Positions 1 through 61,378 of a DNA stretch of 64,000 nucleotides are shown here, piece after piece (within the stretch, counting starts at the first letter, position 1; the number at the start of each line of letters is the position of its first letter). The stretch comes from an uncultured Rhodospirillaceae bacterium. Lineage in GTDB: Bacteria > Pseudomonadota > Alphaproteobacteria > GCA-2731375. The notes under the pieces were generated by a model. It saw nothing but the letters and a program-made list of their open reading frames with translations, made no database searches and was not told where the DNA came from. Location: assembly GCA_964344935.1 (NCBI GenBank), contig CAYFPL010000001.1:1276303-1340302 (forward strand), in the 5' to 3' direction. A program made the position numbers and the translations under genes.

Positions 1-171
1 GGGGAAGCGGTGGAAACCCCGGTTTATATGCGCGACGATTTGGCACCGAGACACGAGATCGCGGGCCCGGCAGTGATCGAACAGTTGGACGCCACAACGA
101 TCCTGGCGCCTGGCGATCATTGCCAGGTCGACGACAGCGGCAATTTAAAGGTTGAGCTCTCCGATGCCTGA
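1..171 (+). CDS. 3' end (partial) of hydantoinase A / N-methylhydantoinase A family gene
   Basis: Frame 1 reads GEAVETPVYMRDDLAPRHEIAGPAVIEQLDATTILAPGDHCQVDDSGNLKVELSDA* with no upstream stop. This is a typical C-terminal tail of HyuA/oxoprolinase A proteins. Its stop overlaps the ATG of the downstream B-subunit gene (ATGCCTGA). Confidence 0.6.
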   Translation, partial: GEAVETPVYMRDDLAPRHEIAGPAVIEQLDATTILAPGDHCQVDDSGNLKVELSDA

Positions 172-1861
172 CAGTCCCGACACCGTTCCACTTGACCCAA
201 TCACCCTGGAAATCCTGCAGAACAGCCTGCGCTCCATCACGGACGAGACCTATATCGCCCTGACCAAGGCGGCCTATTCCACCAACATTAAGGAGCGTCG
301 CGACCATTCCACGGCCCTGACCGACGCCCAAGGCCGCCTGGTGGTACAGGCGGAAAACTCCCTGCCCATCCACCTCGCCTCCATGCTAGGAATGATGGAG
401 GAGTTGCTGGCGAAGTACCGGGCGGAAGACATGGTGGAAGGGGACATCTTCGTCGCCAACGACCCTTACGTGGCCGGCGGCACCCATCTGCCGGATGTCA
501 ATTTGGCAATGCCATGTTTCGCCGACGGCAAGCTGCTGGGTTTCATCTGCAATATCGCTCATCACGCCGATATCGGCGGCATGACACCTGGCAGCATGGC
601 CGGCGGCATGTCGGAAATCTATCAGGAAGGGCTGCGCATTCCCCTGGTGCGGCTGTTCAGGGCCGGGGAACTGGTGCAGGACATCTTCGACCTCCTGCTC
701 CTCAACGTCCGGGTGCCCCACGAACGCCGGGGCGATTATTTCGCCCAGGTCGCCGCCTGCCGCCTTGGCGCCCGCCGGCTGGGCGAACTGTGTGTTCGGT
801 ATGGCGCGGGTACCTTGACGGAGGCCTTCGCCGCCATCATGGACCGCACGGAAAGCCGACTGCGCACTGGTATTGCCGCCATCCCCGATGGCGTCTACGA
901 ATTCACGGACGTCCTGGATAACGACGGCATGGGAACCGAAGACATCCCCATTTCCGTTCGCGTCGATGTGAAGGGCGAGGATATCGCCTTCGATTTCGCC
1001 GGCACCGGACCGCAGATGAAAGGCAATTTCAACCTTACCTTCAATGCCACGCAATCGGCGGTCTATTACGTCCTCAAGGCGATGCTGGACCCGGACCTGC
1101 CCAATAATCATGGCCTGATCCGGGCGGTAGAGATCGCCGCGCCCCTGGGCAGCCTGGTCAATGCGGAACATCCCGCCGCCGTGGCGGGGCGGGCCAATAC
1201 CTCGCAGCGCCTGGTCGATGTGATCGTCGGCGCCCTGGCTCCCGCCCTGCCGGAACAGGCCGTAGGCGCCGCCAACGGTGCCAACGTCACGGCCGTGTTC
1301 TACGGCCATGATCCGCGCTACGACCGGGCCTATGTCTATCTGGAGACTCTGGGCGGCGGTTTTGGCGGCCGTTTCACCAAGGACGGCAAGGACGGCGTGC
1401 AGGTGCATATCACCAACACCTCCAACCTGCCGGTGGAGGCGATCGAGGCGGAGTATCCGCTGCTGGTGGAAAGTTATGGCCTGATCGAGGATTCAGGCGG
1501 CGCAGGTAAATTCAGGGGCGGCATGGGCATCCGCCGCGTGGTCCGCCCCGTGGATCACGACTGCGTCTTTTCCGGCATGGGGGAACGCTTCGTACACCGA
1601 CCCTGGGGCATCTTCGGCGGCAAGCCGGGCGCCACCGGCCGCTTCTCCATCCGCGGGCCTCATCACAACGACGAGACCCTGCCCGACAAACCGAACCACG
1701 TGCCTTTCGGCCCGGACGATGCCATCGTCATCGAAACCCCCGGTGCTGGAGGCTACGGCGAACCCTCAGAACGCGACCCGGACGCCCTGGCCGCCGACCG
1801 CCGCAGCGGCAAATTTACGGACACGTATCTGGCGGAGAATTACGGTTCCGAGGGCAAATAG
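164..1861 (+). CDS. Hydantoinase B / oxoprolinase family protein (HyuB-like)
   Basis: 566-aa ORF with hydantoinase_B family similarity (ANDPYVAGGTHLPD, GGGFGG motifs). The ORF track begins at TTG 152. ATG at 164 overlaps the upstream HyuA stop. Confidence 0.85.
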   Translation: MPDSPDTVPLDPITLEILQNSLRSITDETYIALTKAAYSTNIKERRDHSTALTDAQGRLVVQAENSLPIHLASMLGMMEELLAKYRAEDMVEGDIFVANDPYVAGGTHLPDVNLAMPCFADGKLLGFICNIAHHADIGGMTPGSMAGGMSEIYQEGLRIPLVRLFRAGELVQDIFDLLLLNVRVPHERRGDYFAQVAACRLGARRLGELCVRYGAGTLTEAFAAIMDRTESRLRTGIAAIPDGVYEFTDVLDNDGMGTEDIPISVRVDVKGEDIAFDFAGTGPQMKGNFNLTFNATQSAVYYVLKAMLDPDLPNNHGLIRAVEIAAPLGSLVNAEHPAAVAGRANTSQRLVDVIVGALAPALPEQAVGAANGANVTAVFYGHDPRYDRAYVYLETLGGGFGGRFTKDGKDGVQVHITNTSNLPVEAIEAEYPLLVESYGLIEDSGGAGKFRGGMGIRRVVRPVDHDCVFSGMGERFVHRPWGIFGGKPGATGRFSIRGPHHNDETLPDKPNHVPFGPDDAIVIETPGAGGYGEPSERDPDALAADRRSGKFTDTYLAENYGSEGK

Positions 1862-1877
1862 CCTTGGTTTCCGCGGT

Positions 1878-3494
1878 TCAGTAATCTCGCGCCGTGCCCT
1901 CTGTCGTAACGAAGCCTTCCACTAAATCGGCTTCGATCGCGTCTTGTGACCGGTCAGTCGGCTTGCCGAATCCGCCGCCGCCAGCCTCAATCAGGGTGAT
2001 GCGGTCGCCGGGCTGCAGTTCGTAGTGGCCCTTGGGGTCGACCGTTACATCGTTGATCCGGTGTTCCCTGGGCCGGCCCGGTTCGCCGCCCATGAGGCCC
2101 AAGGGTGGAAAGTCGGTGCGGTTAGCCATGCAGAAGACATTCATGATGTGACCGCTGTCGTTGCGGATCACCACCTCCTGGCCCAGGCCGCCGCGAAAGG
2201 CGCCCGCGCCGCCTGAATCTGGCAACAGGTGTTTGTGGGTCACCGTGGTCGATGTCAGAGTCTCCCAAACTTCCACCGGCACCACGGCCATGTTGGAGGG
2301 GCCCGGCGTGGTCTCGGCCCCGTCGCGGCCGTCCAGGGCACCGAAGCCGCCGGAGGCGAAATAGATGGTTGAAACGTCATGGCCGTCCCGGTGCCGGCCC
2401 TGAAAAGTCATCAGGTCGAGCATGCCGCAATCGGCCTGGATCTGTTCCGGCACTGCTGGCGCCAGGGCGCCGAATACCAGGGGCGAGACGAAATGGCCGA
2501 TCATGTGCCGCGCCCCGGTGGGCGAGGGCGGCTGCGCATTCAAAAGGCAGCCTTCCGGCGCCGTCACGGTAACGGGCACCACGCTGCCGCCATTATTGGG
2601 CAACTCCGGTGCGGTCAGGCACTTGATGGAGTAGAGCACCATGGCCTTGGTGTAACAGAACGGTACGTTGATGCCCTGGCGCACGCCGGGCGCTGTACCG
2701 GCGAAATCCACAGACAGGGCATTGCCCGCAACCTGGACCTTGCAGGCCAGGGTCAGGGCGCCCTCGACCCCTTCGATCTGAATGGCGTTTTCATAATCGC
2801 CGTCGGCCATTCTCCCGATCGCCGCCCGCGTCGCCTGTTCCGAGCGGCCGCGGATCTGCCCCGAGAGGGCCTGGAAGTCGGGCAGGCCGTATTCATGCAG
2901 GAAGGCCATGAGCATGTCATCACCCGCCTTCACGGCGGTGACGTTTGCCATCAGATCGCCGATCACTTGGTCCGGTGCGCGCACATTATTGCGCACCAGT
3001 TCGATAATGAAATCGTTGCGCCGGCCCGCTTCGAACAGCTTGCAGATCGGCAAGCGCAGGCCTTCGTGATAAATCTCCCGCGCCGCTGCGCCAAAGCCCA
3101 GGCCGCCTACATCCGGCAGGTGGGTGATGGAGATCACGTAGGCGACGATGCGGCCCTCGTGAAAGACCGGGCGCATAACGTTGATGTCAAATGTATGACC
3201 GGTGCCAAGCCAGGGATCGTTGGTGATTACGACATCGCCGGGCCGCAGGGTATCGGCGGGGAATTTGGCCAGCATGTGGGCCAAAGTGGCAGGCGCAGTG
3301 CCCATGAACACCGGCACGCTGTAGGTACCCTGGGCCATCAACTCGCCGTCCGCGTCCAGCAGCGCTACAGTCAGATCATAGCTTTCGCTGACGATGGTGG
3401 AGAACGAGGTGCGGACGAGGGTAGTGACGATCTCGTCAGACACCGCGACCAAGCGGTCCCACATGATGCCCACGCTGACAGCATCCAGGCTCAT
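1878..3494 (-). CDS. Hydantoinase B / oxoprolinase family protein (second paralog)
   Basis: 538-aa ORF (NDPWLGTGHTFD, HLPDVGG). Convergent with the plus-strand HyuB-like gene, 16-bp gap. Start ATG overlaps the stop of the upstream hyuA-like gene (ATGA at 3491-3494). Confidence 0.85.
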   Translation of the reverse strand: MSLDAVSVGIMWDRLVAVSDEIVTTLVRTSFSTIVSESYDLTVALLDADGELMAQGTYSVPVFMGTAPATLAHMLAKFPADTLRPGDVVITNDPWLGTGHTFDINVMRPVFHEGRIVAYVISITHLPDVGGLGFGAAAREIYHEGLRLPICKLFEAGRRNDFIIELVRNNVRAPDQVIGDLMANVTAVKAGDDMLMAFLHEYGLPDFQALSGQIRGRSEQATRAAIGRMADGDYENAIQIEGVEGALTLACKVQVAGNALSVDFAGTAPGVRQGINVPFCYTKAMVLYSIKCLTAPELPNNGGSVVPVTVTAPEGCLLNAQPPSPTGARHMIGHFVSPLVFGALAPAVPEQIQADCGMLDLMTFQGRHRDGHDVSTIYFASGGFGALDGRDGAETTPGPSNMAVVPVEVWETLTSTTVTHKHLLPDSGGAGAFRGGLGQEVVIRNDSGHIMNVFCMANRTDFPPLGLMGGEPGRPREHRINDVTVDPKGHYELQPGDRITLIEAGGGGFGKPTDRSQDAIEADLVEGFVTTEGTARDY

Positions 3495-5557
3495 TCTCCG
3501 CCCTCCAGTTCCGCGACCAGGTTGCCTTGTGGATCGACGCGCACCCGATCGCCGGGGCCGATCACAACGGTCGACTCCCGCTCTTCGATCAGGGCCGGGC
3601 CGGCAATCTCCGCGCCAGTGGCCAGTTGATAGCGGTCATAGACCGCCGCCGACTGGAACCCCCCGTCAAAATAGGCCTGCCGGTTGCCCTTGGCGATCAC
3701 GGCATCCGCGCCATTGGGAGCCGCCGTGAAAAGGGCTGGTGCAGGTGCGACGGCCTCCACCTTCCAGGTTGTGATGACCAGCGGCGCATCCAGCAAAGCA
3801 GCGCCATACACCGCCGCATAGGACTCACGAAACAATGCCGGGATATCGGCAAGTTCGGCACCGGCGGGCAAGCTGACTTCGATCTCGTGCCCCTGACCGT
3901 GATAACGCATGTCCAGACGGCGCAGCATCTCGGTCACCTGATCCGTAGCCCTTAAGGGCGCACCGGCCTGTTGTTCCAGGGCCGCGAAAGTGTCTTGAAA
4001 GTCCGCCGCCGTCAGATCGTCGAGAAAAATCTGTCGGGTGCGGGCTACTTCGAAAGTCAGGGGACTGGCCAGCAGCCCCAGGGCCGACATCACGCCCGCT
4101 GCCACCGGAAAGACCACCTTAGCGATGCCCAGTTTGCGCGCCACGCCCAGGGCATGCACCGGGCCGGAGCCACCGAAGGCGATCATGGTGCTGTCGCGGT
4201 AGTCAAAGCCCCGTTCCGAAGCGTGGATACGAAAGGCGCGGGCCACGTCTTCGTCGATGATCTCGTGGATACCCCAGGCCGCTCTTGCAAGCGACAGATC
4301 CAAGGGTGCTCCCACCGATGCGTCGATGGCATCTTCCGCCGCTTTTCGGTCCAGGGCCATGGCGCCGCCAAGGAAGAAGTCAGGGTCAAGGTAGCCCAGG
4401 GCCAAGTTGGCGTCCGTCAGCGTGGAGCATTCACCGCCCTGGCCATAACAGGCCGGTCCTGGATCGGCGCCGGCGCTTTGCGGCCCCACGGCTATGGCGC
4501 CGCGCACGTCAGGCTGGGCGATGGACCCGCCACCGGCGCCGATTTCGATCATATCGATCACCGGCGCCCGCACCGGCATGCCGCTGCCCGCCTTAAAGCC
4601 ATGCACCCTTGCCACTTCCTGGTGATATTCCTTGATTGCCCGGCCGCCGCGGATCAGGGCGCCCTTGGCCGTGGTGCCGCCCATATCGAACGACAGCACC
4701 TTGTCGCAAGCGAGGGCCCGACTGTGATGGGCTGACATCTGCGCCCCCGCCGCCGGGCCGGATTCAATGACGCGAACAGGAAAGCGCCGGGCGGTTTCCG
4801 GTGTCAATGTGCCACCACTGGATGACATGACATAAAGACCACCAGAGAATCCTAATTCCGCCAAGCCATGTTCCAGACGCCCCAGATAGTCGTCGAACAT
4901 GGGCTGGGTAAAGGCATTGAGCGCCGTGGTGGTGAAGCGCTCGAACTCTCGCCATTCGGGACAGACCTCGCTGGAAACGGAAACCGCGAGATCAGGGAAA
5001 TCTTCCGCCGCCATCGCCGCCAAGGCCTGTTCCTGCTCAGTATTGGCATAGCTGTGCAATAGACAGATGGCCAGGGAGGTGATGTTGTGTTCCTCGACCA
5101 ATTGGCCAAGATTGCGCCGCGCCTCCTGCAGATCCAACGGCACCTCGATGGTGCCATCGTAGTGACAGCGCTCCGTGACCTCGGCCCGCATGCGTCTTGG
5201 CACGATTGGATCGGGGAATGTCAGGCGAAGATCGAAGACGTCGTAGCGTTTCTCCTGCCGCATATCCAGGATGTCACGGAAACCCTTGGTCGTCAGCATG
5301 CCGGTGCGGGCGCCCTTGCGTTCGATTACCGCATTGGTGACCAATGTGGTGCCGTGGACGATCTCGCGCACCGCCGCCATGCTCACATCCTCCCGCACCA
5401 GCAGGGTCCGCGTTCCCTCAAGTACCGCACGGGACGGATCATCAGGTGTCGTCAGTTGCTTGTGAATGGCCAATCGCCCGCCCCGTTCGTCGTAGAGCGC
5501 GAAATCGGTGAAGGTGCCGCCGATATCGACGCCCAGTCTGTAGGGGCGGTCGGTCAT
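3491..5557 (-). CDS. Hydantoinase A / oxoprolinase family protein (HyuA-like)
   Basis: 688 aa. N-terminal RLGVDIGGTFTDFAL ATPase motif of the hydantoinase_A / ASKHA fold. Forms an A/B pair with 1878-3494. Confidence 0.85.
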   Translation of the reverse strand: MTDRPYRLGVDIGGTFTDFALYDERGGRLAIHKQLTTPDDPSRAVLEGTRTLLVREDVSMAAVREIVHGTTLVTNAVIERKGARTGMLTTKGFRDILDMRQEKRYDVFDLRLTFPDPIVPRRMRAEVTERCHYDGTIEVPLDLQEARRNLGQLVEEHNITSLAICLLHSYANTEQEQALAAMAAEDFPDLAVSVSSEVCPEWREFERFTTTALNAFTQPMFDDYLGRLEHGLAELGFSGGLYVMSSSGGTLTPETARRFPVRVIESGPAAGAQMSAHHSRALACDKVLSFDMGGTTAKGALIRGGRAIKEYHQEVARVHGFKAGSGMPVRAPVIDMIEIGAGGGSIAQPDVRGAIAVGPQSAGADPGPACYGQGGECSTLTDANLALGYLDPDFFLGGAMALDRKAAEDAIDASVGAPLDLSLARAAWGIHEIIDEDVARAFRIHASERGFDYRDSTMIAFGGSGPVHALGVARKLGIAKVVFPVAAGVMSALGLLASPLTFEVARTRQIFLDDLTAADFQDTFAALEQQAGAPLRATDQVTEMLRRLDMRYHGQGHEIEVSLPAGAELADIPALFRESYAAVYGAALLDAPLVITTWKVEAVAPAPALFTAAPNGADAVIAKGNRQAYFDGGFQSAAVYDRYQLATGAEIAGPALIEERESTVVIGPGDRVRVDPQGNLVAELEGGE

Positions 5558-5567
5558 GGCTGTCTCG

Positions 5568-7148
5568 TCACCGGTTATCCGGCAGGACGTCGACTGCGTC
5601 GCCGATGCCTCGTTCCCGCAACTCGTGGCGGGCGATCTCGTTTTTGGTCATGGTGCGGGGGAACTCCTCGACGAATTCGATGTAGCGCGGCACCTTGAAA
5701 AAGGCAATGCGGTCCTTGCACCATTCCACCAGTTCGCCCGGTTCAACCTCCGCGGCGGTTTGCACATAGGCCTTGATGTCTTCTTCGCCTATTTCCGAGG
5801 GCACGCCGACCACGGCGCAATCGACCACAGCCTCGTGGGCCGTCATGGCTTTCTCTACTTCAAAGGCGGAGACGTTCTCGCCGCGGCGGCGGATCCAGTG
5901 GGCCTCCCGACCGACAAAATAGACGAAGCCGTCCTCGTCCAGATAGCCCAGATCGCCGCTGTGGTACCAAAGGTTCTTCCAAGCAGCCAGGGTCTCATTG
6001 GGCTTGTTGATGTATTCCATCATGTAGGTATTGGGCACCTTGGGGCGGAGCAGGATCTGCCCGGTGGTATTGGCGGGCACAGGGTTGTCGTCTTCATCCA
6101 CGATCAGAACCTCGGCCCAGCCGTGGGGCCGGCCGCAGGAGCCGAGGCGACGGTCGAAAGTCCGTTCGCTGCAGATCAATACGCCCATCTCGGTCATGGA
6201 ATAGACCTCCATCATCGGCGTGCCGAAGCGTTCCTCGAACTCGTCACGCAGATCCCGGCGCACCTGACCCGCCGCGATGCCGACACCGATCCTAACCTTA
6301 TGGTCCATGTCCTTGTTCGACTTGGGCGCCCGCAGCAGCACGGCCATCATGGTGCCCAGGGGATCGATGATGGTAACGCCGTATTTACGGATTGTGGTCC
6401 AGTAGTTGGAGGCCGAGAACCATTTTTCCATGACCCCGGTCATGCCGTGATAGAGGGGGCCGGTGATGGCAAACTGCTGGCCGCCGATATGGAAGAAATG
6501 GGAATTGGCGAAATGCACGTCATCTTCGGTCGCTTCGGCGATATCGCCGTACCTGATGGCGGCAGCGATGTAATAGAGGTGTGAAACGAGCACTCCCTTG
6601 GGCATGGATGTGCTGCCGCCGGTGTAAACGATGCACATGGGATCCGCCGCGGCGACCTGGGCTTCGGGCAGGCTATCGTCGTCACCAACCAGGTCGTCGT
6701 ATGGCAAAGCGCCATCGACGGCGGTTTCGTCGCCCAGGACCAGAACCGTGGGTGCCACGGTCAATTCCGGCCTGGCGGCGATATAGGCGCGCGTCAATTC
6801 CTCGTCCACCACGAACAGCTTAGCGCCCGTGTCGTTCAGGGAATAGCAGAGGTCATCTTTGACCAGGGAGACGTTGAGGGCAGCGTAGACGGCGCCGATC
6901 TTGGCGCAGGCGAACCAGATCACCGCCTGCTCGATCGAATTGTACATCAGGGTTGCGACCACATCGCCCTTGCCGATGCCGTGTGCAATCAGACGGTTCG
7001 CCACGCGATTGGATAGCTCGTGGGCGTCGCCATAAGTCAGGGTGACGTCCCGGCAGATCAGGAACGGTTTCTCCCTCAATTCGGCCCGCATAATGATCAG
7101 GTCCCGCAAGGTTTCCGTATGGGGCGTGCGCCCCATAATGTCGATCAT
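5568..7148 (-). CDS. AMP-dependent synthetase/ligase (acyl-CoA synthetase family)
   Basis: AMP-binding signature YTGGSTSMPKG. Start chosen at ATG 7148 (MIDIMGRTPH), preceded by GAGGGTGGG. The longer ORF to 7187 would overlap the upstream gene by 26 nt. Confidence 0.8.
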   Translation of the reverse strand: MIDIMGRTPHTETLRDLIIMRAELREKPFLICRDVTLTYGDAHELSNRVANRLIAHGIGKGDVVATLMYNSIEQAVIWFACAKIGAVYAALNVSLVKDDLCYSLNDTGAKLFVVDEELTRAYIAARPELTVAPTVLVLGDETAVDGALPYDDLVGDDDSLPEAQVAAADPMCIVYTGGSTSMPKGVLVSHLYYIAAAIRYGDIAEATEDDVHFANSHFFHIGGQQFAITGPLYHGMTGVMEKWFSASNYWTTIRKYGVTIIDPLGTMMAVLLRAPKSNKDMDHKVRIGVGIAAGQVRRDLRDEFEERFGTPMMEVYSMTEMGVLICSERTFDRRLGSCGRPHGWAEVLIVDEDDNPVPANTTGQILLRPKVPNTYMMEYINKPNETLAAWKNLWYHSGDLGYLDEDGFVYFVGREAHWIRRRGENVSAFEVEKAMTAHEAVVDCAVVGVPSEIGEEDIKAYVQTAAEVEPGELVEWCKDRIAFFKVPRYIEFVEEFPRTMTKNEIARHELRERGIGDAVDVLPDNR

Positions 7149-7161
7149 TATCCCACCCTCG

Positions 7162-9177
7162 CTATTCGAACTGTCCGGCGAGGCCAACGGCGCCGGCCTG
7201 TTTCAGCGAGTCTATCTCGTCGTCGGCGAGGGACAAGACCCGGGCTAGGACCTCGCCGTCCTCATCACCCAGGATCGGTGCCGGCTTGTGGACGGCGGGC
7301 CGGCGGCCATCAACCCGCCAGGGGGCTGCAACCAATTCGTCCTCGCCGGTGAATGGATGCACAGACGGGACCCAGCCGCTGCAGTCGGCGAAGACCGATG
7401 CGCCGTCGGTTTCATCCAACTCCAGCATGTCGGTGTAATCGCCATCCCGCTCGCTGCAGGCTGCAACGATCTCGGCACGGCTGGCGCCATCCAAGGCCTG
7501 ACGCAGCGCCAACTTGTCTGAAAAGACCGCAACCGGAAAACTCACGGCGATATAACTGCCATCGTCGGCCGCCAGGATATCGCCTACGGTCTCCTCGTCC
7601 GGCATGGGCGTTCCTGCGAGGGTCGCCGCTGCTTCGATCTGGGAAACATCGAAAGCGCGGCCCTTCCCGTCGGCATGGACAGCCAAGGCGCCGGCAAGTA
7701 TGCCCATGGCGCCAAAGGCGGCGGCATTGGGATCCGACAGTGAGAAGGTCGGCGAGCCCAGGAATTCATCGCCTTCGCGGACCTGATCCTCGGCCCCGCC
7801 CAGGGCGCTCAAGACCAGACCATAAGAACGCAGGGCCTCGACACTGGAACCCCGGCCCGGGCCGCTCATGGACATCTGCACCAGTTTCGGATTGGCGTGC
7901 GCCAGGGCGGCTGCATCCAGTCCCAGGCGCTCCATGGTACCCACGGTGAAATTTTCGATCAGCAGGTCCGATTTCGCGGCAAGTTCTAGGGCCAGCCGCA
8001 AACCTTCCTCATGCTTCAGGTCCAGGGTCAAGCCGGATTTGTTGCGGTTCAGGCTATGGAAATAGAGCGAAGATTCGATCCTTGTCTTTTCGTCCATCTT
8101 CTTGCGCAAATGCTCCAGACCCCGGGTGCGGTAGAGATCGAAACGGCCCGGCGCTTCGACCTTGATTACGTCAGCGCCCAGGTCGGCGAGAATCTGGCCG
8201 ATCATGGGACCGGACCAGACCCAGCAGAGTTCCAGGCACCTGAGCCCGGCCAGCGGTCCGTCACCCCCGGCCATGTCCGCCCATGGATTCGATCCGCCCA
8301 CGCCGCTGCCCTGTTCGTGAATCTGAAACGGCATGCAGGGGACATCATCGACAATGAAACTGTCCCTGAAGACATCGCGCTCGGCCGCCTCCGCCTGGCT
8401 ATAAACCGGCGCGATGACGGCGCCATGAGCCAGGCCCTGGCGCAAGAGCTGATCGCGGCTGAACTGGGCCAGCGTGTCGCGCATCAGATCGTCCGCCTCT
8501 GCACTGTCCCGGGCCAGGGTGAAGGGATCTTGGAAGGCCTCGTCCTTGGCCCAGTCCGGATCGCCGATGGCCATGCGGATTTGCTGCCAATCCCGCCGGG
8601 AGCGGCCCAAAAGCGCCACATGGCCGTCCTTGCAGGGATAGAACCCCATAGGGAAGATGCCGCCATGATCAACACAGATGTGGCCATTACGCCGCCAGCT
8701 ACGGACCATCTCTTCCCGGCCGCCGGAATTCTGTAGGGAGAATACGCGGATCACATCGGCCGCCGAGACGTCGTACTCGATTTTTCCGTCGGCACCGTCA
8801 CGGCGGCGCCAGGCCTCCGCCAGGGCCAGGATGACGCCATAGATGCCGCACCATTTTTCGGGCATGTCGGCGGGCAATGGTCGGCCGGGGCCGTCCCTGT
8901 ATCCAATCACCGAGGCCGCACCGCCAACGGCACTGGCCAGGACGCCGCTGCCCCGACAGCCGACCTGGAAATCCCAGAGTCGGATCACACACGCAGCCTC
9001 GGACGGCTGATTATCGGCGACGATGGCAATGTCGGCCTGGTCCGGGTCCTGAGTGACGGAACCGCCTAACGCCTCAAGCCAATGCCGGGCATAATGGACG
9101 GACCGGTTGCCGGTCGATACTGCAATGCTTGCCGCCGCATCCAGCGGCAATTTCCTCGTTGGGCTCGCCGGGTTCAT
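7162..9177 (-). CDS. Family III CoA-transferase (CaiB/BaiF-like), unusually long tandem two-domain protein
   Basis: The C-terminal ~370 aa form a complete CaiB/BaiF-like domain (LRCLELCWVWSGPMIGQILADLGADVIKVEAP...). The N-terminal ~290 aa resemble the central and C-terminal part of a second CoA-transferase III domain. ORF track start 9183 is TTG. ATG at 9177 lies 2 nt after the upstream gene's stop. Confidence 0.75.
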   Translation of the reverse strand: MNPASPTRKLPLDAAASIAVSTGNRSVHYARHWLEALGGSVTQDPDQADIAIVADNQPSEAACVIRLWDFQVGCRGSGVLASAVGGAASVIGYRDGPGRPLPADMPEKWCGIYGVILALAEAWRRRDGADGKIEYDVSAADVIRVFSLQNSGGREEMVRSWRRNGHICVDHGGIFPMGFYPCKDGHVALLGRSRRDWQQIRMAIGDPDWAKDEAFQDPFTLARDSAEADDLMRDTLAQFSRDQLLRQGLAHGAVIAPVYSQAEAAERDVFRDSFIVDDVPCMPFQIHEQGSGVGGSNPWADMAGGDGPLAGLRCLELCWVWSGPMIGQILADLGADVIKVEAPGRFDLYRTRGLEHLRKKMDEKTRIESSLYFHSLNRNKSGLTLDLKHEEGLRLALELAAKSDLLIENFTVGTMERLGLDAAALAHANPKLVQMSMSGPGRGSSVEALRSYGLVLSALGGAEDQVREGDEFLGSPTFSLSDPNAAAFGAMGILAGALAVHADGKGRAFDVSQIEAAATLAGTPMPDEETVGDILAADDGSYIAVSFPVAVFSDKLALRQALDGASRAEIVAACSERDGDYTDMLELDETDGASVFADCSGWVPSVHPFTGEDELVAAPWRVDGRRPAVHKPAPILGDEDGEVLARVLSLADDEIDSLKQAGAVGLAGQFE

Positions 9178-9179
9178 AC

Positions 9180-10472
9180 TCAATCAGTAGCAAGCGGCAA
9201 GGGCACGGGCCCGTCGGATTTTGATGGCAGAGCAGTTACAGCCGTGCCGCGCGCCGACAACATATTCACTTGGTTGCGCGCCTCCACCTCCAGATCGACG
9301 AATTTCACGGCACCTTCGTCCCGTTTGCCCGTTACCTTGCCCCGCCACCACAGGGTATCGCCAACCATATTCGGTTTCAGTACGTCGACGGCCAATTTAT
9401 GCAGGAAACCGTGATCGCCGATCCAGTTGGTCAGCATGTGCTGCGCCCAGGCGATACGCTGGGGGCCTACATCGTAGGCTCCCCCCATGCCCACGTCCCG
9501 CCCGGTAGAGGCTTCCAGATGCCCGCGGCCAGCGGAATCCTTGGCCCCGGTTTCCTTGTTGATGTGATAATCCGCATGGCGGCGCCGATAACGGACCACG
9601 TCACCGTGCACGCCGCCGTAATGCAGCGCCCCCTGGGCGGCGGCATACCAGCCGATGATATCCATGATGGTCAGTGGACCCTTGATCACCGGCGGCACGT
9701 CATCGCCGATCTGCACATCCTCCCAGTAGAGCGGATCCGTGCCCCGCCGGGGCTCCGCCAGGATTTGTTCCTCGATATCCGCGAGTTCCGCCGGCTCGTA
9801 ACGATGGGGGACATGTCCCTTGGGTTCCTTGCCATCCTTGCGCTGACTGCCATCGCCCCGCGGCGTGCGGGCGCATTTGCCTACCGCGAAGGCGATCAAG
9901 GCGCCTTGTTGGTTATGGTATTTCAATTCGCCGGTCTGCAGAGCCCATTTGCCGAAACGGCGGCCGGATTTCACTTCCTGCTTGGTCAGCATTACATCCA
10001 CCTTGAAACTGTCGTCCAGGCGGATGTGGTCATACCAAGTCCATTCCGTGCCGGCATAGATCCATTGCACGCCGGCCAACTTGGGCGCGACGATGGTGGA
10101 ATCCACCGCATAAAGAATGCAGGGTGGCGCTACGATGCCCCCTGTAGGTCCGGCGGCAGCGTAATCCGCATCGAACCACAACGGGTTGTTGTCGCCGACG
10201 CCCCAGGCAAAATGCCGGATCGCATCCTTCGTCGCGGCTTCGATCCATTGCATGCGGTCGCGCCGCAGGGGTACGCCGATCAGTTCGGCGGCGGCGGCTA
10301 GGGTTTCTTCGTTGATCTTTCCCCAGGTCAAGTCAATCAGATCTCGTCCCGTACGTGCGACATGATTTAAGTGGCGGAATGCGCCCGCCCTCTTTGGGGC
10401 GGTGCGCAATAACGTCGATGGCGTAATAACCCTCAAAGTCTCCCGAATGGGAGCGCCGTTGTCAATCCACAA
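9180..10472 (-). CDS. MaoC-like (R)-specific enoyl-CoA hydratase/dehydratase, double hotdog fold
   Basis: Two hotdog-like halves (FAS1-like dehydratase N-domain plus MaoC C-domain). Stop TGA abuts the start of the CoA-transferase. The 5' end is uncertain: the ORF track starts at a TTG, with internal TTG/ATG candidates. Confidence 0.65.
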   Translation of the reverse strand: MWIDNGAPIRETLRVITPSTLLRTAPKRAGAFRHLNHVARTGRDLIDLTWGKINEETLAAAAELIGVPLRRDRMQWIEAATKDAIRHFAWGVGDNNPLWFDADYAAAGPTGGIVAPPCILYAVDSTIVAPKLAGVQWIYAGTEWTWYDHIRLDDSFKVDVMLTKQEVKSGRRFGKWALQTGELKYHNQQGALIAFAVGKCARTPRGDGSQRKDGKEPKGHVPHRYEPAELADIEEQILAEPRRGTDPLYWEDVQIGDDVPPVIKGPLTIMDIIGWYAAAQGALHYGGVHGDVVRYRRRHADYHINKETGAKDSAGRGHLEASTGRDVGMGGAYDVGPQRIAWAQHMLTNWIGDHGFLHKLAVDVLKPNMVGDTLWWRGKVTGKRDEGAVKFVDLEVEARNQVNMLSARGTAVTALPSKSDGPVPLPLATD

Positions 10473-10475
10473 TAA

Positions 10476-10510
10476 TATTGTCTATAGACAATAATTGTCG
10501 TCGCAATTAT
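10476..10510. promoter_or_regulatory. Putative operator: 18-bp perfect palindrome TATTGTCTATAGACAATA (10476-10493) overlapping a second inverted repeat ATAATTG-N6-CAATTAT (10491-10510)
   Basis: Read directly in the 43-bp AT-rich gap between the dehydrogenase gene end (10516) and the start of the long minus-strand operon (10472). Core TTGT-N6-ACAA resembles GntR/FadR-type boxes. Confidence 0.45.
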
Positions 10511-10515
10511 CTCAC

Positions 10516-11448
10516 TTACTCGCTCTCCAAAACCGCCCGAATATCGGCGGGATCCACTTCGATTTCCACCCCGGCACGCTCTTGTTGCAGGATCATGGCG
10601 GAGCGGGAATCCCTATCCCCCCAGCCCCGCCCCAGGGCCTCGGTCATATCGGCCACGGTGGCATTGATCAGACGCATGGGCACACCGAATTCACGCCCCA
10701 GCTCCGCCGCCAGGCTGACGTCTTTATGAGCCAGTTTCAGAGCAAAGTCGGCCGGGTCGTAGTTGTTAATCAGGTAATGCTCACCCAAGCTATCGAAAGT
10801 ACGCTGACGGCCCCGCGCCCCCTGGCGCACGGCCTCCCATAGGGCCAGGGGTTCCACGCCCGCTTTGACACCAACGGAGAAAACTTCCGCCAGGGCGGTC
10901 TGAATAGCATAGCCGGCGGCATTATGAACCAGCTTGGCAATGGAGCCGGCGCCGATGGGCCCGATATAGCGCACCTGATCGCCCAAGGCGTCCAAGGCTG
11001 CCCGGTGGGCGTTGAAGATTGCTTCATCACCTCCCACCCAGATTGCCAACTTACCCGAGGCCGCCCCCTTGGGCCCGCCGCTGACCGGTGCGTCGAGGCA
11101 GTGCAAACCCTTTTCGGCCATGACGCTGTGGACTTGACGGATCGCGGTCGGGGAATTGGTCGACAGATCGAACAGCACCGTGCCGGGCGCCATGCCCGCG
11201 ATCAGTCCGTTCTCGGCATCCAGGGCGACGGCTTCCACCTCTGGTGGGCCAGGCAGAGAGGTCAGGATGACATCCGAGGCCGCCGCCAATTCCCGCGGGC
11301 TGTCAGCCCATGCCGCACCCGCGGCCAAGTGGGGTTCGGCGACTTGGCGGTGAATATCGTGCACGGTTGTTTCGAAGCCGGCCTTGATGATGTTCCTGGC
11401 AAAGGATGCCCCCATAGTGCCCAGGCCGATAAATCCGATCTTTGCCAT
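10516..11448 (-). CDS. NAD(P)-dependent 3-hydroxyisobutyrate dehydrogenase family oxidoreductase (MmsB/GarR-like)
   Basis: N-terminal Rossmann motif MAKIGFIGLGTMG. 310 aa, typical beta-hydroxyacid dehydrogenase length. Confidence 0.85.
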   Translation of the reverse strand: MAKIGFIGLGTMGASFARNIIKAGFETTVHDIHRQVAEPHLAAGAAWADSPRELAAASDVILTSLPGPPEVEAVALDAENGLIAGMAPGTVLFDLSTNSPTAIRQVHSVMAEKGLHCLDAPVSGGPKGAASGKLAIWVGGDEAIFNAHRAALDALGDQVRYIGPIGAGSIAKLVHNAAGYAIQTALAEVFSVGVKAGVEPLALWEAVRQGARGRQRTFDSLGEHYLINNYDPADFALKLAHKDVSLAAELGREFGVPMRLINATVADMTEALGRGWGDRDSRSAMILQQERAGVEIEVDPADIRAVLESE

Positions 11449-11451
11449 GGC

Positions 11452-11760
11452 TTAGTCCTGCCCTTCCAGGACTTCCAAGGCCACACGGCCCGCATTCACT
11501 GCCGTGGGCCAGCCGGAATAAAACGCCAGATGGGTTATCAAGCCGAACAGTTCTTCCTTTGTGACGCCGTTGTCGATGGCGCGGGCCATATGCCCTTTCA
11601 GTTCCTCCGTTCGGTAAAGGGCGATGAGCACCGCCACGGTGGCCAGGCTGCGGTCCCGTTTTGAAAGTTCGGGCTGCTCCCAGACATCGCCGAACAGCAC
11701 CTCGTCACGCAAATTCCCCAATTGCGGGATGAGATCGTAGGGTGTTTTCTTCTCTGCCAT
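11452..11760 (-). CDS. Carboxymuconolactone decarboxylase (CMD/AhpD-like) family protein
   Basis: 102-aa protein with a CMD-family core. RBS AAGGA upstream. 3-nt gap to the downstream dehydrogenase gene. Confidence 0.75.
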   Translation of the reverse strand: MAEKKTPYDLIPQLGNLRDEVLFGDVWEQPELSKRDRSLATVAVLIALYRTEELKGHMARAIDNGVTKEELFGLITHLAFYSGWPTAVNAGRVALEVLEGQD

Positions 11761-11782
11761 AGTTCCGATCCTTTTTCGTTGT

Positions 11783-12589
11783 CTAGCTCGTGGCGTCCTT
11801 GGGCGGGACGTCCAATCGCACCACCGCGCCTTCCAAATCCGGGCGGGGTGCGGGATAGCGCTGCATCACGAGGGGGTCGTGCCCCGGCACGATATGGGCA
11901 TTGTCCTTGGCCAAACTGCGCAGATTGCGGTGGCTTTCCAGCATCTGGAAAAGATCTTCGTGAGTCAGGAACGGTGTCTCCTGTTCGAAGCTCTCGTAAT
12001 AGTGGGCCACGTCGGAAGCCAGGACGACCGGTCCACGCGGACTGCCGGCGCGGACCGCCTGCATGCCGCGGGTGTGGCCCGGCAAATGATGCACGCTTAC
12101 ACCCGGGGCGATCTCGTCTTCGCCGTCGTGGAACACCACCCGATCCCCGTAGATTAGGCGGACCATGTCGATGACATCGTCCAGGCGGAAGGAATGGCGC
12201 AGGGCCGGGTGGGTCATGGCCCGGCCGGTCACAAGCGACATTTCCGCATCCTGGATGTGAAACCGCGCCTTGGGAAACTGCTCCAAATTGCCGGCATGGT
12301 CGTAATGCATATGGGTGATGATCACATCCTCGATTTCGGCGGCGTCGATATCCAGCATGGCCAAGCCTTCCGTTGGCGAACGCAAATATGTCCGACCCCG
12401 GCGCTCGCCTTCCTCGCGGCCGTAGCCTACGTCGACCACGATCGTGCGCTGCTCGTTGCGAAGGACCCAGATGAAGTAGTCCATGGCCATCGGCGCATCA
12501 TGGGGATCGCCATGCACGAACATGGTGCCGCGCTCCCCCATACGCTCGCCATACTTGATGGCAAATATTTCATAGCGGTCGTCCGCCAT
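11783..12589 (-). CDS. MBL-fold metallo-hydrolase (N-acyl-homoserine-lactonase-like)
   Basis: HxHxDH motif (ITHMHYDHAGN). Start at ATG 12589 (MADDRYEIF), preceded by GGGAGG. The 573-aa ORF in the track is an unsupported N-terminal extension. Confidence 0.75.
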   Translation of the reverse strand: MADDRYEIFAIKYGERMGERGTMFVHGDPHDAPMAMDYFIWVLRNEQRTIVVDVGYGREEGERRGRTYLRSPTEGLAMLDIDAAEIEDVIITHMHYDHAGNLEQFPKARFHIQDAEMSLVTGRAMTHPALRHSFRLDDVIDMVRLIYGDRVVFHDGEDEIAPGVSVHHLPGHTRGMQAVRAGSPRGPVVLASDVAHYYESFEQETPFLTHEDLFQMLESHRNLRSLAKDNAHIVPGHDPLVMQRYPAPRPDLEGAVVRLDVPPKDATS

Positions 12590-12652
12590 GCGCTTTCCTC
12601 CCTTGTCGGCTTGGCATTTAGTGTAACATCCTTCGCGAGCAGGGGGTCGAAT

Positions 12653-13624
12653 ATGCGGATCATCATCTATGGTGCCGGCGGCATCGGCGGCGTTATCGGC
12701 GCGCAATTGTTCCAGGGCGGCATCGATACGCTGTTGATTGCCAGGGGCGACCACCTCAAGGCTATTCAGGACAAAGGACTGCACTACCGCACGCCACATC
12801 AAGACGTGACGCTGCCTATTGACGCCGTGGGCCATCCCAGAGAGATCGACTTCCGCGAAGATGACGTGGTCATCCTGACCATGAAGACCCAGCACACCCG
12901 GGATGCCCTGGACGATCTGCGCGCCGCTGCAGGCGACGGCATTCCCCTGTTCTGCTGCCAGAACGGGGTGGCGAACGAGCGTATGGCGGCCCGCCGTTTT
13001 CGAAACGTGCATGCCCAAATGGTCTATTTGCCTGCCACGCAACTGGAACCGGGCACAGTGGTGACACACGCCGCCGCCACAATCGGGGTGCTGGACGCGA
13101 GCGTTTATCCCACGGGCAGTTCCAATCTGGTGGAGGAGGTGACGGCCGCCCTGGACAGCAACGGCTTCTCCGCCCGGCCCAACGCAACGGTGATGCGTTT
13201 CAAATACGGCAAGCTGATCATGAACCTTGGCAACGCCCTTTCTGCCGTCGCCCCGCCGGGAGAAGAGACAAAGGCAATCCGGGCCCAGTTGCGGGCGGAA
13301 GCCGAGGCGGTGTTCGAAGCCGCGGGCATCGACTGCGCCAGCCAGGAGGAAGAGCGGGCCCGTCGCGGTGATCTGATGAAATCGGCGGCCGTCGCTGGGC
13401 AGGAACGGGTCGCCGGCTCGTCGTGGCAGAGCCTGGCCCGGGGCACCGGCAATATCGAGGCGGACTTCCTGAATGGCGAAATTGTTCTTCTGGGCCGACT
13501 GCACGGCATCCCCACCCCCGCCAACCTAATCCTGCAGCACCTGGCCAACGACCTGGCGGCCAGGGGTGGTGAACCACAGAGCATTCCTTTGGCGGAAGTA
13601 AAGCGGCAGATCGACGGCGCCTAA
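12653..13624 (+). CDS. panE: 2-dehydropantoate 2-reductase (ketopantoate reductase family)
   Basis: MRIIIYGAGGIGGVIG Rossmann N-terminus of the ApbA/PanE family. Start ATG 12653 after AGGGGG. Divergent from the MBL-hydrolase gene across a 63-bp intergenic region. Confidence 0.8.
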   Translation: MRIIIYGAGGIGGVIGAQLFQGGIDTLLIARGDHLKAIQDKGLHYRTPHQDVTLPIDAVGHPREIDFREDDVVILTMKTQHTRDALDDLRAAAGDGIPLFCCQNGVANERMAARRFRNVHAQMVYLPATQLEPGTVVTHAAATIGVLDASVYPTGSSNLVEEVTAALDSNGFSARPNATVMRFKYGKLIMNLGNALSAVAPPGEETKAIRAQLRAEAEAVFEAAGIDCASQEEERARRGDLMKSAAVAGQERVAGSSWQSLARGTGNIEADFLNGEIVLLGRLHGIPTPANLILQHLANDLAARGGEPQSIPLAEVKRQIDGA

Positions 13625-14826: not shown

Positions 14827-14897
14827 GACGGCATCACTTGTTCTATCAGCAAAATTAAGGGGACAATGTTCTCTTAGCAGCACCTAGGAGCCCGGTC

Positions 14898-22248: not shown

Positions 22249-22956
22249 ATGGCTGAGCCCGGGAATTACGCACCACGGGATTGGCAGAGCCATCCCCCCT
22301 ATCTCGCACCGGAGTACAAATCAACGCCGCTGCGGGCACCGACCAAGCCCCTGGTGATCCTGCCCCAGAACCTGTCTGAACTAACCGGGCCGGTCTATGG
22401 CCAGGACGCGGTCGGACCGCTGGATCACGACCTGACCAAGTCGGCCGCGAAGAACGGTGAACCAAATGGCGAGCGCATTATCGTAGCGGGCAAGATGACG
22501 GACGAAGACGGGCGCCCGGTGCCCAATATCCTGCTCGAGGTTTGGCAGCCGAACGCGGCGGGACGTTACAACCATGCCGACGACCAGCACGATGCCCCCA
22601 TCGATCCGAACTTCCTGGGCGCGGGCCGCTGTGTGACCGATGACGAGGGCCGATATCGTTTCATCACCATCAAGCCGGGCGCCTATCCTTGGGGCAATCA
22701 CTTCAACGCCTGGCGGCCCAACCATATCCATTTTTCCCTGTTCGGCCCTTCGATCCTGACTAGGTTGATCACCCAGATGTATTTCCCCGGCGATCCGCTG
22801 CTGGAGCTGGATCCCATCTTCAATGCCACGCCGGCCGCCACCCGTGACCTGTTGGTTTCGAAGTTGTCCATTGAGCTGTCCGAGCCGGAATGGGCGCTGG
22901 GTTATGAATTCAACATCTGTCTGCGCGGCCGCGTCGCCACGCCCATGGAGACGTGA
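22249..22956 (+). CDS. pcaH: Protocatechuate 3,4-dioxygenase beta subunit
   Basis: Strong PcaH signatures (ERIIVAGKMTDEDGRPVPN, AWRPNHIHFSLFGPS, QMYFPGDPL). Confidence 0.9.
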   Translation: MAEPGNYAPRDWQSHPPYLAPEYKSTPLRAPTKPLVILPQNLSELTGPVYGQDAVGPLDHDLTKSAAKNGEPNGERIIVAGKMTDEDGRPVPNILLEVWQPNAAGRYNHADDQHDAPIDPNFLGAGRCVTDDEGRYRFITIKPGAYPWGNHFNAWRPNHIHFSLFGPSILTRLITQMYFPGDPLLELDPIFNATPAATRDLLVSKLSIELSEPEWALGYEFNICLRGRVATPMET

Positions 22957-22958
22957 GC

Positions 22959-23534: not shown

Positions 23535-23539
23535 GGCCG

Positions 23540-54886: not shown

Positions 54887-54964
54887 TGTTTTTTGCAATA
54901 AACAAGGCGTGTTTGGACTTCGTCAATAATTCCCTGCCATCATGATTAGCGGAGGTAGGTAGAC

Positions 54965-55444: not shown

Positions 55445-55505
55445 CGCTACGAACGACCGGTGTCCCGCCCTTGCCCCCTTGGCGGGGCTTGGTTAGGCTG
55501 ACGCC

Positions 55506-55709: not shown

Positions 55710-55710
55710 C

Positions 55711-56558: not shown

Positions 56559-56599
56559 GACGATCCGCTCAAAGTCCCGCCGAAGACCTCAGGCTAACG

Positions 56600-61373: not shown

Positions 61374-61378
61374 CCACC

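Follow-up and report, generated by a model that had tools for sequence, protein, structure and literature searches.

A hydantoinase-type gene pair in a predicted CoA-thioester catabolic operon of an uncultured Rhodospirillaceae bacterium

Why should a gene pair of the hydantoinase family be located in one operon with genes for coenzyme A (CoA) thioester chemistry? The question is raised by a stretch of 64,000 nucleotides from an uncultured Rhodospirillaceae bacterium (contig CAYFPL010000001.1 of GenBank assembly GCA_964344935.1, positions 1,276,303 to 1,340,302; referred to here as the window). In this window, a MaoC-type double-hotdog protein (DH), a two-module family III CoA-transferase (CoAT2), an AMP-forming acyl-CoA ligase (LIG), and the hydantoinase-type proteins HyuA and HyuB are encoded one after another (Table 1). 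These five genes were named in a first-pass annotation of the window. The open reading frames (ORFs) are present at the coordinates given there, the Pfam and NCBIfam profiles agree with all five identities, and only the start codon of DH is corrected below. Our preferred reading, to which we assign a probability of about 0.5, is that the operon is catabolic, i.e., that HyuAB opens a lactam and that the resulting acid is processed as a CoA thioester. The block, which is probably controlled by an IclR-type repressor, would be the clade-specific version of a widespread module that degrades a cyclic carboxylic acid via CoA thioesters. We infer both the order of the reactions and the lactam nature of the substrate.

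Conservation of the operon and of a wider module

The TGA stop codon of DH overlaps a TTG codon by 4 nt, and an ATG follows 2 nt later; the start of CoAT2 is either this TTG (9183) or this ATG (9177). LIG begins 13 nt after CoAT2 at an ATG that is preceded by the Shine-Dalgarno-like run GAGGGTGGG, the ATG of HyuA lies 10 nt beyond LIG, and HyuA and HyuB are joined by an ATGA overlap of 4 nt. The start of DH, which had been placed at 10472, was moved to TTG 10331 because all 12 aligned orthologues share the N-terminal sequence M-[TAS]-W-G, which matches this position of the window. The corrected protein has 383 amino acid residues instead of 430, and an intergenic region of 184 nt separates its gene from the upstream dehydrogenase gene.

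The fused CoAT2 was chosen as the survey query as the most distinctive of the five gene products, and its close full-length relatives number in the hundreds among marine Alphaproteobacteria and metagenome-assembled genomes (MAGs) of Rhodospirillaceae. A scan with one genome per species gave 73 loci (designated by the letter L and a number). DH occurs together with a CoA-transferase in 69 loci. The window proteins were mapped onto all ORFs of these loci, and gene calls were added for selected contigs. The nearest relatives are Rhodospirillaceae and other alphaproteobacterial MAGs. The exact five-gene order was found only in the clade of the window, in approximately 10 related MAGs whose CoAT2 proteins are 68 to 73% identical; it is complete in L004, L010, L011, L012/L077, L014, and L015 and partial on the short contigs L005, L008, and L009. 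The junctions in this clade measure -4 nt for DH/CoAT2 (+2 nt in L011), +13 to +27 nt for CoAT2/LIG, -4 or -1 nt for LIG/HyuA, and -4 nt for HyuA/HyuB. The overlap between the LIG stop codon and the HyuA start codon was observed in all eight clade loci in which it could be measured, across a divergence of approximately 30% in CoAT2. Since the gene order and a near-identical spacing recur in approximately 10 genomes with CoAT2 proteins that are only 68 to 73% identical, the arrangement is beyond chance, and the comparison indicates that the five genes constitute one genuine conserved operon, in which they are presumably co-transcribed and translationally coupled. The synteny is thus not unique to this strain, and the earlier view that the block acts as a unit is in agreement with the conserved order and spacing and with the presence of an operator- or promoter-like element just upstream of the first gene.

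This element is a double palindrome. The AT-rich spacer that precedes DH contains site 1, TTGTCTATAGACAA, a perfect palindrome of 14 bp. Site 2, TTGTGGATTGACAA, located one base away, is an imperfect copy and holds a TTGACA hexamer (10460-10465) resembling a -35 box. Together, the two sites form a 16-nt inverted repeat of 33 bp overall with the arrangement TTGTCTATAGACAA-N-TATTGTGGATTGACAA. In 10 other loci, the palindrome block is found 95 to 125 bp upstream of the first operon gene, which is DH in L013 and a luciferase-like (LLM) oxidoreductase gene (LUX) in L004, L006, L009, L011, L014, L015, L017, L018, and L032. An IclR-family gene is present in 19 of the 69 loci; in several of them it is divergent from the block, and in the split-type loci (see below) it lies just upstream on the same strand. 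No IclR gene was found in the 64-kb window. The conservation of the block and the IclR gene adjacent to it in several loci suggest that transcription starts at this point under the control of a repressor, with the double palindrome as the probable IclR-type operator and promoter. This comparative operator is more informative than a consensus scan, which found no internal promoter or terminator sites beyond the expectation from shuffled sequence (4 promoter-like and 7 terminator-like matches versus 4.6 and 10.7 expected). Searching positions 1-16000 with Rfam at the gathering thresholds gave no match, and the 5' leader is therefore without a known riboswitch. A megablast search of the 8.6-kb block against plasmids also gave no match.

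The first-pass annotation described a five-gene operon, but the unit that is widespread has a different composition. A monooxygenase is encoded in 64 of the 69 loci, namely LUX in 53 and a protein of 540 amino acid residues resembling Baeyer-Villiger monooxygenases (FMO; best NCBIfam match, the Baeyer-Villiger enzyme PtlE) in 11, and the two never occur together. In the relatives of the window, LUX is the first gene after the operator and is followed by DH, CoAT2, and LIG. An orthologous ligase is present in 50 loci, a lactonase of the SMP-30/gluconolactonase type (SGL) in 23, and HyuAB in 7, to which the window and the partial contigs are added. None of the 69 loci contains both SGL and HyuAB, and in L018 and L085, SGL starts 2 to 3 nt after the LIG stop codon, i.e., in the slot of HyuA in the clade of the window. 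As judged from these counts, the widespread unit consists of the monooxygenase, DH, the CoA-transferase, and the ligase, with or without the lactonase and IclR, and HyuAB is a clade-specific 3' addition to this wider module in one group of marine alphaproteobacteria.

Like IclR, the LUX, SGL, and FMO genes were not found in the 64-kb window itself. LUX is also missing in L013. In a neighbor-joining tree of CoAT2, calculated without support values, the window is grouped with L004/L005 and L013 is grouped with L014/L015, and these four partners bear LUX, which suggests that LUX was lost twice independently, in the window and in L013. When positions 10332-10515 of the window are compared with L004, L013, L014, and L077, the relatives (L013 excepted) have LUX between the operator and DH, and MetE-like, CMD, molybdenum-hydroxylase, and IclR genes fill the interval from the HIBADH-like gene to the operator. 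None of these genes is found at this place in the window, in which the operator is nevertheless kept, and at least two deletions are therefore needed.

Additional genes recur around the module in parts of the family, including those for an acyl-CoA dehydrogenase, short-chain dehydrogenases/reductases, and crotonases. A thiolase with a ChsH2-type OB/zinc-ribbon partner also recurs, and the split-type loci that bear the thiolase carry a TRAP transporter as well. The recurring neighbors in the HyuAB clade are a molybdenum hydroxylase set, a short MetE-like gene, CMD genes, and a HIBADH-like dehydrogenase. The hydroxylase set is located just upstream of the operon in L006, L009, L011, L013, L014, and L015, where the large subunit, the 2Fe-2S subunit, and CMD are confirmed and the FAD subunit is presumed. 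The locus of a cultured Paraburkholderia (L084) contains the FMO resembling Baeyer-Villiger enzymes, the ligase, SGL, a divergent IclR gene with a small MaoC gene, two transferase genes, and DH, followed by a set resembling the distal valine pathway (aldehyde dehydrogenase, two crotonases, and HIBADH).

A few variants of the module were also observed. A PrpD/MmgE-family gene overlaps the ligase stop codon at the HyuA slot in L079 (13611-15044), which belongs to a clade with approximately 63% CoAT2 identity, and sulfatase genes recur downstream in L079 and L085. In L085 (13360-16390), transposase genes interrupt the ligase of a LUX-DH-CoAT2-LIG-SGL operon and leave a ligase fragment of 91 residues. 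In the NCBIfam scans, no equivalog was assigned to LUX, to either of the two SGL representatives, to the beta-type subunit of the transferase, or to the PrpD-like gene.

Properties of the encoded proteins

HyuA and HyuB match their Pfam families above the gathering scores, with 167.5, 265.7, and 56.9 bits for the three domains of HyuA and 462.1 bits for PF02538 in HyuB. In comparison with solved structures, HyuA scores 392 bits against N-methylhydantoinase (7hk5), 336 bits against CapA (6yra), and 174 to 232 bits against carboxylase subunits, and the corresponding values of HyuB are 192 bits (7hk5), 175 bits (CapB), and 60 to 81 bits. HyuB is of hydrolase length (538 residues), whereas the carboxylase homologues have 684 to 776 residues, and no gene for a third, small subunit was found in or adjoining the operon. 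The profile scores and lengths indicate that HyuAB is on the hydrolase branch together with N-methylhydantoinase and caprolactamase. The caprolactamase equivalogs of NCBIfam were not reached (HyuA, 465.9 bits; HyuB, 215 bits; cut-off, 1000 bits), and HyuAB is thus related to caprolactamase but different from it. D11 and D291 of HyuA align with D11 and D295 at the ATP site of CapA, and D40, H100, D103, and H125 of HyuB align with the metal ligands D41, H99, D102, and H124 of CapB, all of which are essential in CapAB according to mutagenesis (PMC8453981).

Orthologues of HyuAB with 62 to 68% identity occur alone or in unrelated contexts, e.g., in Stella humosa. Two others, with 70% and 67% identity, adjoin class III aminotransferase genes, and one of these loci also has a TRAP transporter and a further Hyu pair. 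Because the caprolactam pathway likewise pairs caprolactamase with an aminotransferase (PMC6061476), HyuAB looks like a lactam hydrolase that yields an amino acid.

CoAT2 is recognized by the CoA_transf_3 profile with 244.8 bits. A profile search against solved structures aligns residues 308 to 533 and 559 to 664 of CoAT2 with residues 3 to 219 and 324 to 427 of formyl-CoA transferase (Frc). D484 (SLSDPNAA), which is invariant in 69 sequences, aligns with the catalytic D169 of Frc (ALGDSNSG), and the alternative that the catalytic Asp is replaced by Gly (YGLVLSALGG) was rejected on the basis of this alignment. The C-module (residues ~308 to 673) has only ~25 residues at the place of the ~100-residue small domain of Frc, and its catalytic apparatus looks competent in the alignment and the model. 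The N-module (residues 1 to ~300) is degenerate and has no family match of its own, and it keeps a segment resembling the small domain. D/E106 of this module seems to sit like D484, a correspondence read by eye from the sequence and the model helices and not from a computed alignment. The hhalign comparison of the two modules gave a weak match of 52 columns with a probability of 2%; the homology of the N-module is therefore proposed from a weak match to the small domain of ordinary transferases, from the reading of the motif, and from relatives with split genes.

In these relatives, which are ~40% identical and belong to Sphingobium, Hoeflea, Rhodobacteraceae, and Paraburkholderia, the two modules are encoded by separate adjacent genes in the opposite order, and DH follows them. 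Since the order of the modules is reversed between the two forms, the fusion is permuted relative to the split operon. The split-type loci (L062-L076 and L084; e.g., L084:7907-11164) encode the catalytic module, the degenerate module, and DH in this order, and their degenerate subunit has no NCBIfam match; in the fused type, DH comes first, and the degenerate module is fused to the catalytic module that follows it. The term "fused CoA-transferase" in the first-pass annotation is consequently apt, as the C-module aligns with Frc and the degenerate N-module is a gene of its own in distant relatives.

The AlphaFold2 (AF2) model of CoAT2 has a mean predicted local distance difference test (pLDDT) score of 93 and a predicted TM (pTM) score of 0.95, and the top Foldseek matches (E = 1e-20) are SUGCT, Frc, BbsEF, and CaiB. 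None of the named family III enzymes (formyl-CoA, succinate-glutarate, mesaconate, and carnitine) was matched at the equivalog level in NCBIfam (best score, 153 bits; cut-offs, 413 to 750 bits). The interlocked dimer of like ~400-residue subunits, each with a small domain, is also not matched by CoAT2, which is a single chain of 673 residues with two unlike modules.

LIG, with 526 residues from ATG 7148, is an AMP-forming acyl-CoA ligase that scores 241.1 bits for PF00501 and 56.2 bits for PF13193. The best NCBIfam matches are PRK06155 (394.6 bits; cut-off, 722 bits) and, in second place, a CaiC-type ligase (295 bits), and no equivalog was reached. The P-loop IVYTGGSTSMPK and a C-terminal Lys in PRTMTKNEI can be read from the sequence.

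DH matches PF13452 with 44.5 bits (cut-off, 22 bits), and its score for PF01575 (22.8 bits) is below the cut-off of 27 bits. Its identity is 65 to 82% across Alpha-, Beta-, and Gammaproteobacteria and beyond, which is tighter than that of the partner genes, and an exhaustive search gave 342 clusters at E <= 1e-30. The N-terminal hotdog aligns with the PhaJ-type (R)-hydratase 5cpg. The catalytic Asp...His motif of hydratase 2 is G-D-x-N-P-[LIV]-H; in DH, the motif GxGDxNPLW reads GDNNPLW, i.e., the Asp is kept (D47) and the catalytic His is replaced by Trp (W52). Both residues are invariant in 52 DH sequences, and the Trp is also present in distant paralogues. The AF2 model of DH is moderate (pLDDT, 70; below 50 at the conserved motifs), and no active-site geometry was drawn from it for this reason. 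The top Foldseek matches are double-hotdog dehydratases, including mesaconyl-CoA and itaconyl-CoA hydratases (TM score, ~0.5; identity, 11 to 15%), and DH is presumed to be a hydratase or dehydratase acting on an acyl thioester.

Distant DH paralogues with 33 to 36% identity and the motif RHFAxGxxDxNPLW (P0442, P0449, P0451, P0488, and P0501) are fused to adenylation and carrier domains resembling those of nonribosomal peptide synthetases (NRPSs), and P0442 is additionally fused to a condensation domain. These fusions suggest a biosynthetic branch of the DH hotdog family, and because they share the motif, they tie the family to thioesters formed by adenylating enzymes.

Proposed pathway, alternatives, and comparison with known systems

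In the proposed pathway, LIG would make the first acyl-CoA, CoAT2 would transfer CoA either from the product to a new substrate molecule or from one carboxyl group to another within the same molecule, and DH would add or remove water on the thioester. A monooxygenase of the luciferase-like or Baeyer-Villiger type and a lactonase accompany this core in most genomes. Since the core travels with these two enzymes, ring cleavage through a lactone is suggested for the wider family, and since DH, the transferase, and the ligase are embedded in monooxygenase, lactonase, and beta-oxidation-type chemistry, the breakdown of a cyclic carboxylic acid is suggested as the overall function. In the clade of the window, the ATP-dependent HyuAB comes after the ligase and takes the place of the lactonase. 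It would most likely phosphorylate and hydrolyze a stable five- to seven-membered lactam (cyclic amide), and the ring-opened acid would enter the ligase, transferase, and DH steps. The first-pass annotation proposed that an ATP-dependent ring opening or carboxylation feeds CoA chemistry; the ring opening is retained in our best reading, and the carboxylation is considered unlikely, as HyuAB is closer to the hydrolases and the operon has no gene for a third subunit.

Several observations weigh against this reading. HyuAB may add a branch instead of replacing the lactonase, since most HyuAB loci keep LUX and since a gene for a lactonase-like protein of the metallo-beta-lactamase (MBL) fold is located upstream in the window, L006, L009, and L016. 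The mutual exclusion of SGL and HyuAB may reflect a single evolutionary event in one clade. Because LUX and IclR are missing, the pathway of the window and its regulation may differ from those of the relatives, and the reaction of DH is uncertain because the catalytic His is missing and the model is poor at the conserved motifs. The remaining objections concern the membership of HyuAB in the pathway. Orthologues of HyuAB with 62 to 70% identity occur without nearby CoA genes, in contexts as varied as those of Stella humosa (L081) and of L082, L083, L086, and L087; most of the 69 loci have a complete core and no HyuAB; and L007, which is inside the clade, has nothing after LIG. HyuAB could therefore be a passenger that is co-transcribed with the core, was inherited after its arrival at the 3' end of the operon in one ancestor, and has a separate job such as the salvage of 5-oxoproline or another lactam, and the two further Hyu pairs in the window, which indicate that the family is expanding in this genome, fit such a role. 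We nevertheless consider a passenger role unlikely: the overlap of LIG and HyuA is maintained in eight of eight loci despite the divergence of CoAT2, and HyuAB occupies the slot of the ring-opening lactonase of sister clades without ever being found together with SGL.

It is somewhat less likely that HyuAB acts inside the pathway and opens a lactam or imide intermediate after CoA activation and the action of DH or the monooxygenase. CoAT2 would then be an intramolecular shuttle on a dicarboxylate, like mesaconyl-CoA C1:C4 transferase or ThnP, and the co-occurrence of a ligase with a family III transferase is indeed explained most easily if the transferase relocates or recycles CoA. Molybdenum hydroxylases make lactam tautomers from N-heterocycles, and such a set lies upstream of the operon in the six loci named above; it is missing beside the operon of the window, in which only a distant paralogue is found (35828-38161). 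We know of no hydantoinase-family enzyme that accepts a CoA thioester, and the order of the reactions is not readable from the order of the genes. Intramolecular family III transferases are known, and 8apq and 7xkg are among the fold matches of CoAT2 (PMC11659651).

A further alternative, which we regard as improbable, is that HyuAB uses ATP and bicarbonate to carboxylate a (cyclic) ketone, after which LIG would activate the beta-keto acid for cleavage as a CoA ester; this scheme would replace the oxygen-dependent route through monooxygenase and lactonase. The two losses of LUX suggested by the CoAT2 tree look as if HyuAB had made LUX dispensable. A precedent also exists for carboxylation followed by CoA activation, since the genes of acetophenone carboxylase lie with a benzoylacetate-CoA ligase gene in Aromatoleum. 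In that system, a hydantoinase-family ATP-dependent enzyme (described in PMC5214803) hands its product to a CoA ligase, so that the combination found in the window is not paradoxical and cannot be called unprecedented. However, acetophenone carboxylase is a multi-subunit enzyme of the carboxylase branch, whereas the pair in the window consists of two genes of the hydrolase branch. The Asp-His-Asp-His metal tetrad is common to the carboxylases and hydrolases of the family (PMC8453981) and is compatible with either activity. The scores against solved structures, the length of HyuB, and the absence of a small-subunit gene argue for a hydrolase, and the aminotransferase genes adjoining the 67 to 70% identical orthologues fit an amino acid product.

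It is highly improbable that the module builds or tailors a small metabolite on a thioester, as the NRPS-like fusions of the distant DH paralogues might indicate, because the orthologous loci have catabolic neighbors (TRAP and ABC uptake systems, beta-oxidation-type enzymes, lactonases, and the distal-valine-like genes of Paraburkholderia), and carrier protein, condensation, and export genes are absent from the operon of the window, the surroundings of which are otherwise catabolic.

Returning to the preferred lactam-opening pathway, all five proteins are members of known superfamilies, and precedents exist for every pairwise combination; however, the operon does not fit any of the known systems as a member. 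The cai operon of E. coli encodes the ligase CaiC, the family III CoA-transferase CaiB, and the hydratase CaiD. The two systems are alike in that a ligase primes the cycle, a family III transferase exchanges CoA between product and substrate, and a hydratase acts on the thioester, and CaiB is among the fold matches of CoAT2. On the other hand, CaiD belongs to the crotonases instead of the hotdog proteins, CaiB forms a homodimer from a single 400-residue subunit, cai has no ring-opening enzyme, and all scores obtained here are far below the equivalog cut-offs. In BbsEF, which acts in benzylsuccinate degradation, two different family III modules cooperate as they may in CoAT2, and its chains are among the best sequence and fold matches; SmtAB and DddD are further heteromeric or fused family III CoA-transferases. 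The split-type loci, in which the modules lie beside the thiolase and the ChsH2-type OB/zinc-ribbon partner, have an arrangement that we take to resemble the bbs operon. In contrast to enzymes of the BbsEF type, the second module of CoAT2 is strongly degenerate, and little of the small domain remains in the catalytic module.

Alicyclic ketones and acids such as cyclohexanone and camphor are degraded via routes that use a Baeyer-Villiger monooxygenase, a lactonase, and a CoA ligase. The wider loci combine a monooxygenase, SGL, and a CoA ligase in a similar manner, whereas the window has lost the monooxygenase and has HyuAB instead of SGL; to our knowledge, none of these routes uses this DH or a two-module transferase. 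The caprolactam pathway of Pseudomonas jessenii (CapAB), N-methylhydantoinase, and 5-oxoprolinase have the same two-subunit HyuA/HyuB organization with the same residues at the ATP and metal sites; the partner in the caprolactam pathway is an omega-aminotransferase, whereas the window combines HyuAB with a CoA ligase, a CoA-transferase, and a hotdog protein.

The first-pass annotation had also compared the operon with itaconate and mesaconate routes, which pair a family III transferase with a double-hotdog hydratase (PMC11789021). This analogy is valid at the level of the folds: MeaC (8hgn), the Chloroflexus protein 4e3e, and PaIch (8huc) are among the best fold matches of DH, and Rv3272, an itaconate:succinyl-CoA transferase, is among the matches of CoAT2. 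It does not extend further, as no citramalyl-CoA or malyl-CoA lyase gene was found in the operon or among the recurring neighbors of the surveyed loci, the NCBIfam scores for mesaconate transferase and isomerase are 27 to 121 bits (cut-offs, 700 to 725 bits), a ligase is present that is not needed in those routes, and DH has Trp at the position of the catalytic His. Itaconate or mesaconate, carnitine-type betaines, acids resembling pyrrole- or furan-2-carboxylate, terpenoid or naphthenic acids, and 5-oxoproline analogues were weighed as substrates by analogy only and set aside. Full-text searches of the literature yielded no account of the cluster or the wider module, in agreement with the first-pass view that the pathway is undescribed.

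The comparison exposes a widespread gene module, which in the 69 surveyed loci ranges from marine Rhodospirillaceae-type MAGs to cultured Paraburkholderia and Sphingobium. The two mutually exclusive pairs (LUX/FMO and SGL/HyuAB) represent a natural experiment from which monooxygenation, ring opening, and CoA-dependent processing are predicted, and they suggest O- and N-heterocycle versions of one pathway. We tentatively propose, with considerable reserve, that DH, the two-module transferase, and the ligase are an unrecognized widespread system for ring degradation with an exchangeable ring-opening cassette, in which a lactonase would serve O-heterocycles or Baeyer-Villiger lactones and the ATP-driven HyuAB lactamase would serve their nitrogen counterparts. 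If this proposal is correct, the operon of the window would represent the first example in which a lactamase of the hydantoinase family is coupled directly to CoA-thioester catabolism, DH would catalyze a reaction different from textbook hydration, its catalytic His being missing, and the degenerate module would give the transferase an auxiliary or non-catalytic partner of a new kind. Biocatalysts for stable five- to seven-membered lactams, e.g., nylon monomers, are sought among the ATP-dependent lactamases (PMC11033972), and the known range of substrates would grow with a lactamase whose downstream CoA route is defined. The question can be tested in cultured hosts of the split-type system, among them Paraburkholderia sp. 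GCA_026310235.1, Sphingobium aquiterrae DSM 106441, and S. phenoxybenzoativorans SC_3, and what emerges is a coherent, widespread, and testable pathway rather than a new principle.

Neighboring genes and other features of the window

Table 1. Coordinates of the operon, its operator-like element, and the adjacent genes in the window
Feature	Position	Strand	Family or description
DH	9180-10472 (ORF); corrected, 9180..10331	-	PF13452, FAS1-like/MaoC double hotdog
CoAT2	7162..9183	-	PF02515, CoA_transf_3; 673 aa
LIG	5568-7187 (ORF); from start ATG 7148, 5568..7148	-	AMP-binding and AMP-binding_C
HyuA	3491..5557	-	Hydant_A_N, Hydantoinase_A, and Hydant_A_C; ATP-binding subunit, hydantoinase/oxoprolinase type
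HyuB	1878..3494	-	Hydantoinase_B; metal-site (hydrolytic) subunit
Operator-like double palindrome	10459..10491	-	Site 1, TTGTCTATAGACAA, 10478-10491; site 2, TTGTGGATTGACAA, 10459-10472 (minus strand)
HIBADH-like beta-hydroxyacid dehydrogenase	10516-11448	-	Pfam and NCBIfam matches; abuts the operon in the window
CMD-family protein	11452-11760	-	Pfam and NCBIfam matches

The HIBADH-like and CMD genes upstream of DH are outside the unit defined by the operator, and they may share the pathway. The same CMD-HIBADH pair lies 5 to 9 kb upstream of the operon in L006, L009, L011, L014, L015, L016, and L077. The MBL-fold gene mentioned above (11783-13504, minus strand) encodes a protein of 573 residues, of which residues ~345 to 550 weakly match MBL-fold lactonases of the AiiA/AidB-like type and the N-terminal ~340 residues have no family match. 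Synteny with the CMD-HIBADH pair extends to this gene in L006, L009, and L016, and the protein could serve as a lactonase instead of SGL.

Two other pairs of the hydantoinase family are located in the window. HyuB2 (152-1861, plus strand; 569 residues) converges on the operon and ends 16 bp from the HyuB stop codon, and no terminator-like hairpin was found between the two stop codons. The corresponding HyuA2 is cut off by the start of the window (window 1-1861, plus strand). This convergent pair is kept in L004, L012, and L077, where it is preceded by a TRAP transporter gene (DctM). The third pair is on the minus strand in the order B-then-A (HyuB, 49930-51561; HyuA, 47844-49964) and is flanked by a class IV aminotransferase gene (51554-52492) and a gene for a thiamine pyrophosphate-dependent enzyme (46237-47847); this set resembles a route from a lactam via an amino acid to an oxo acid, and the genome is rich in the Hyu family.

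The rest of the window is also catabolic in character. It encodes pyruvate carboxylase (14898-18356), a crotonase with pcaHG and a pcaB-like gene (22249-24829), two further luciferase-like proteins, and several amidohydrolases. The stretch from 27 to 38 kb holds a purine/urate block, which includes a Bmp-type ABC transporter and a large subunit resembling xanthine dehydrogenase, and the region 53534-62152 contains genes for an RPE65-type carotenoid oxygenase (53534-54886), a PhyH dioxygenase, and a dienelactone hydrolase.

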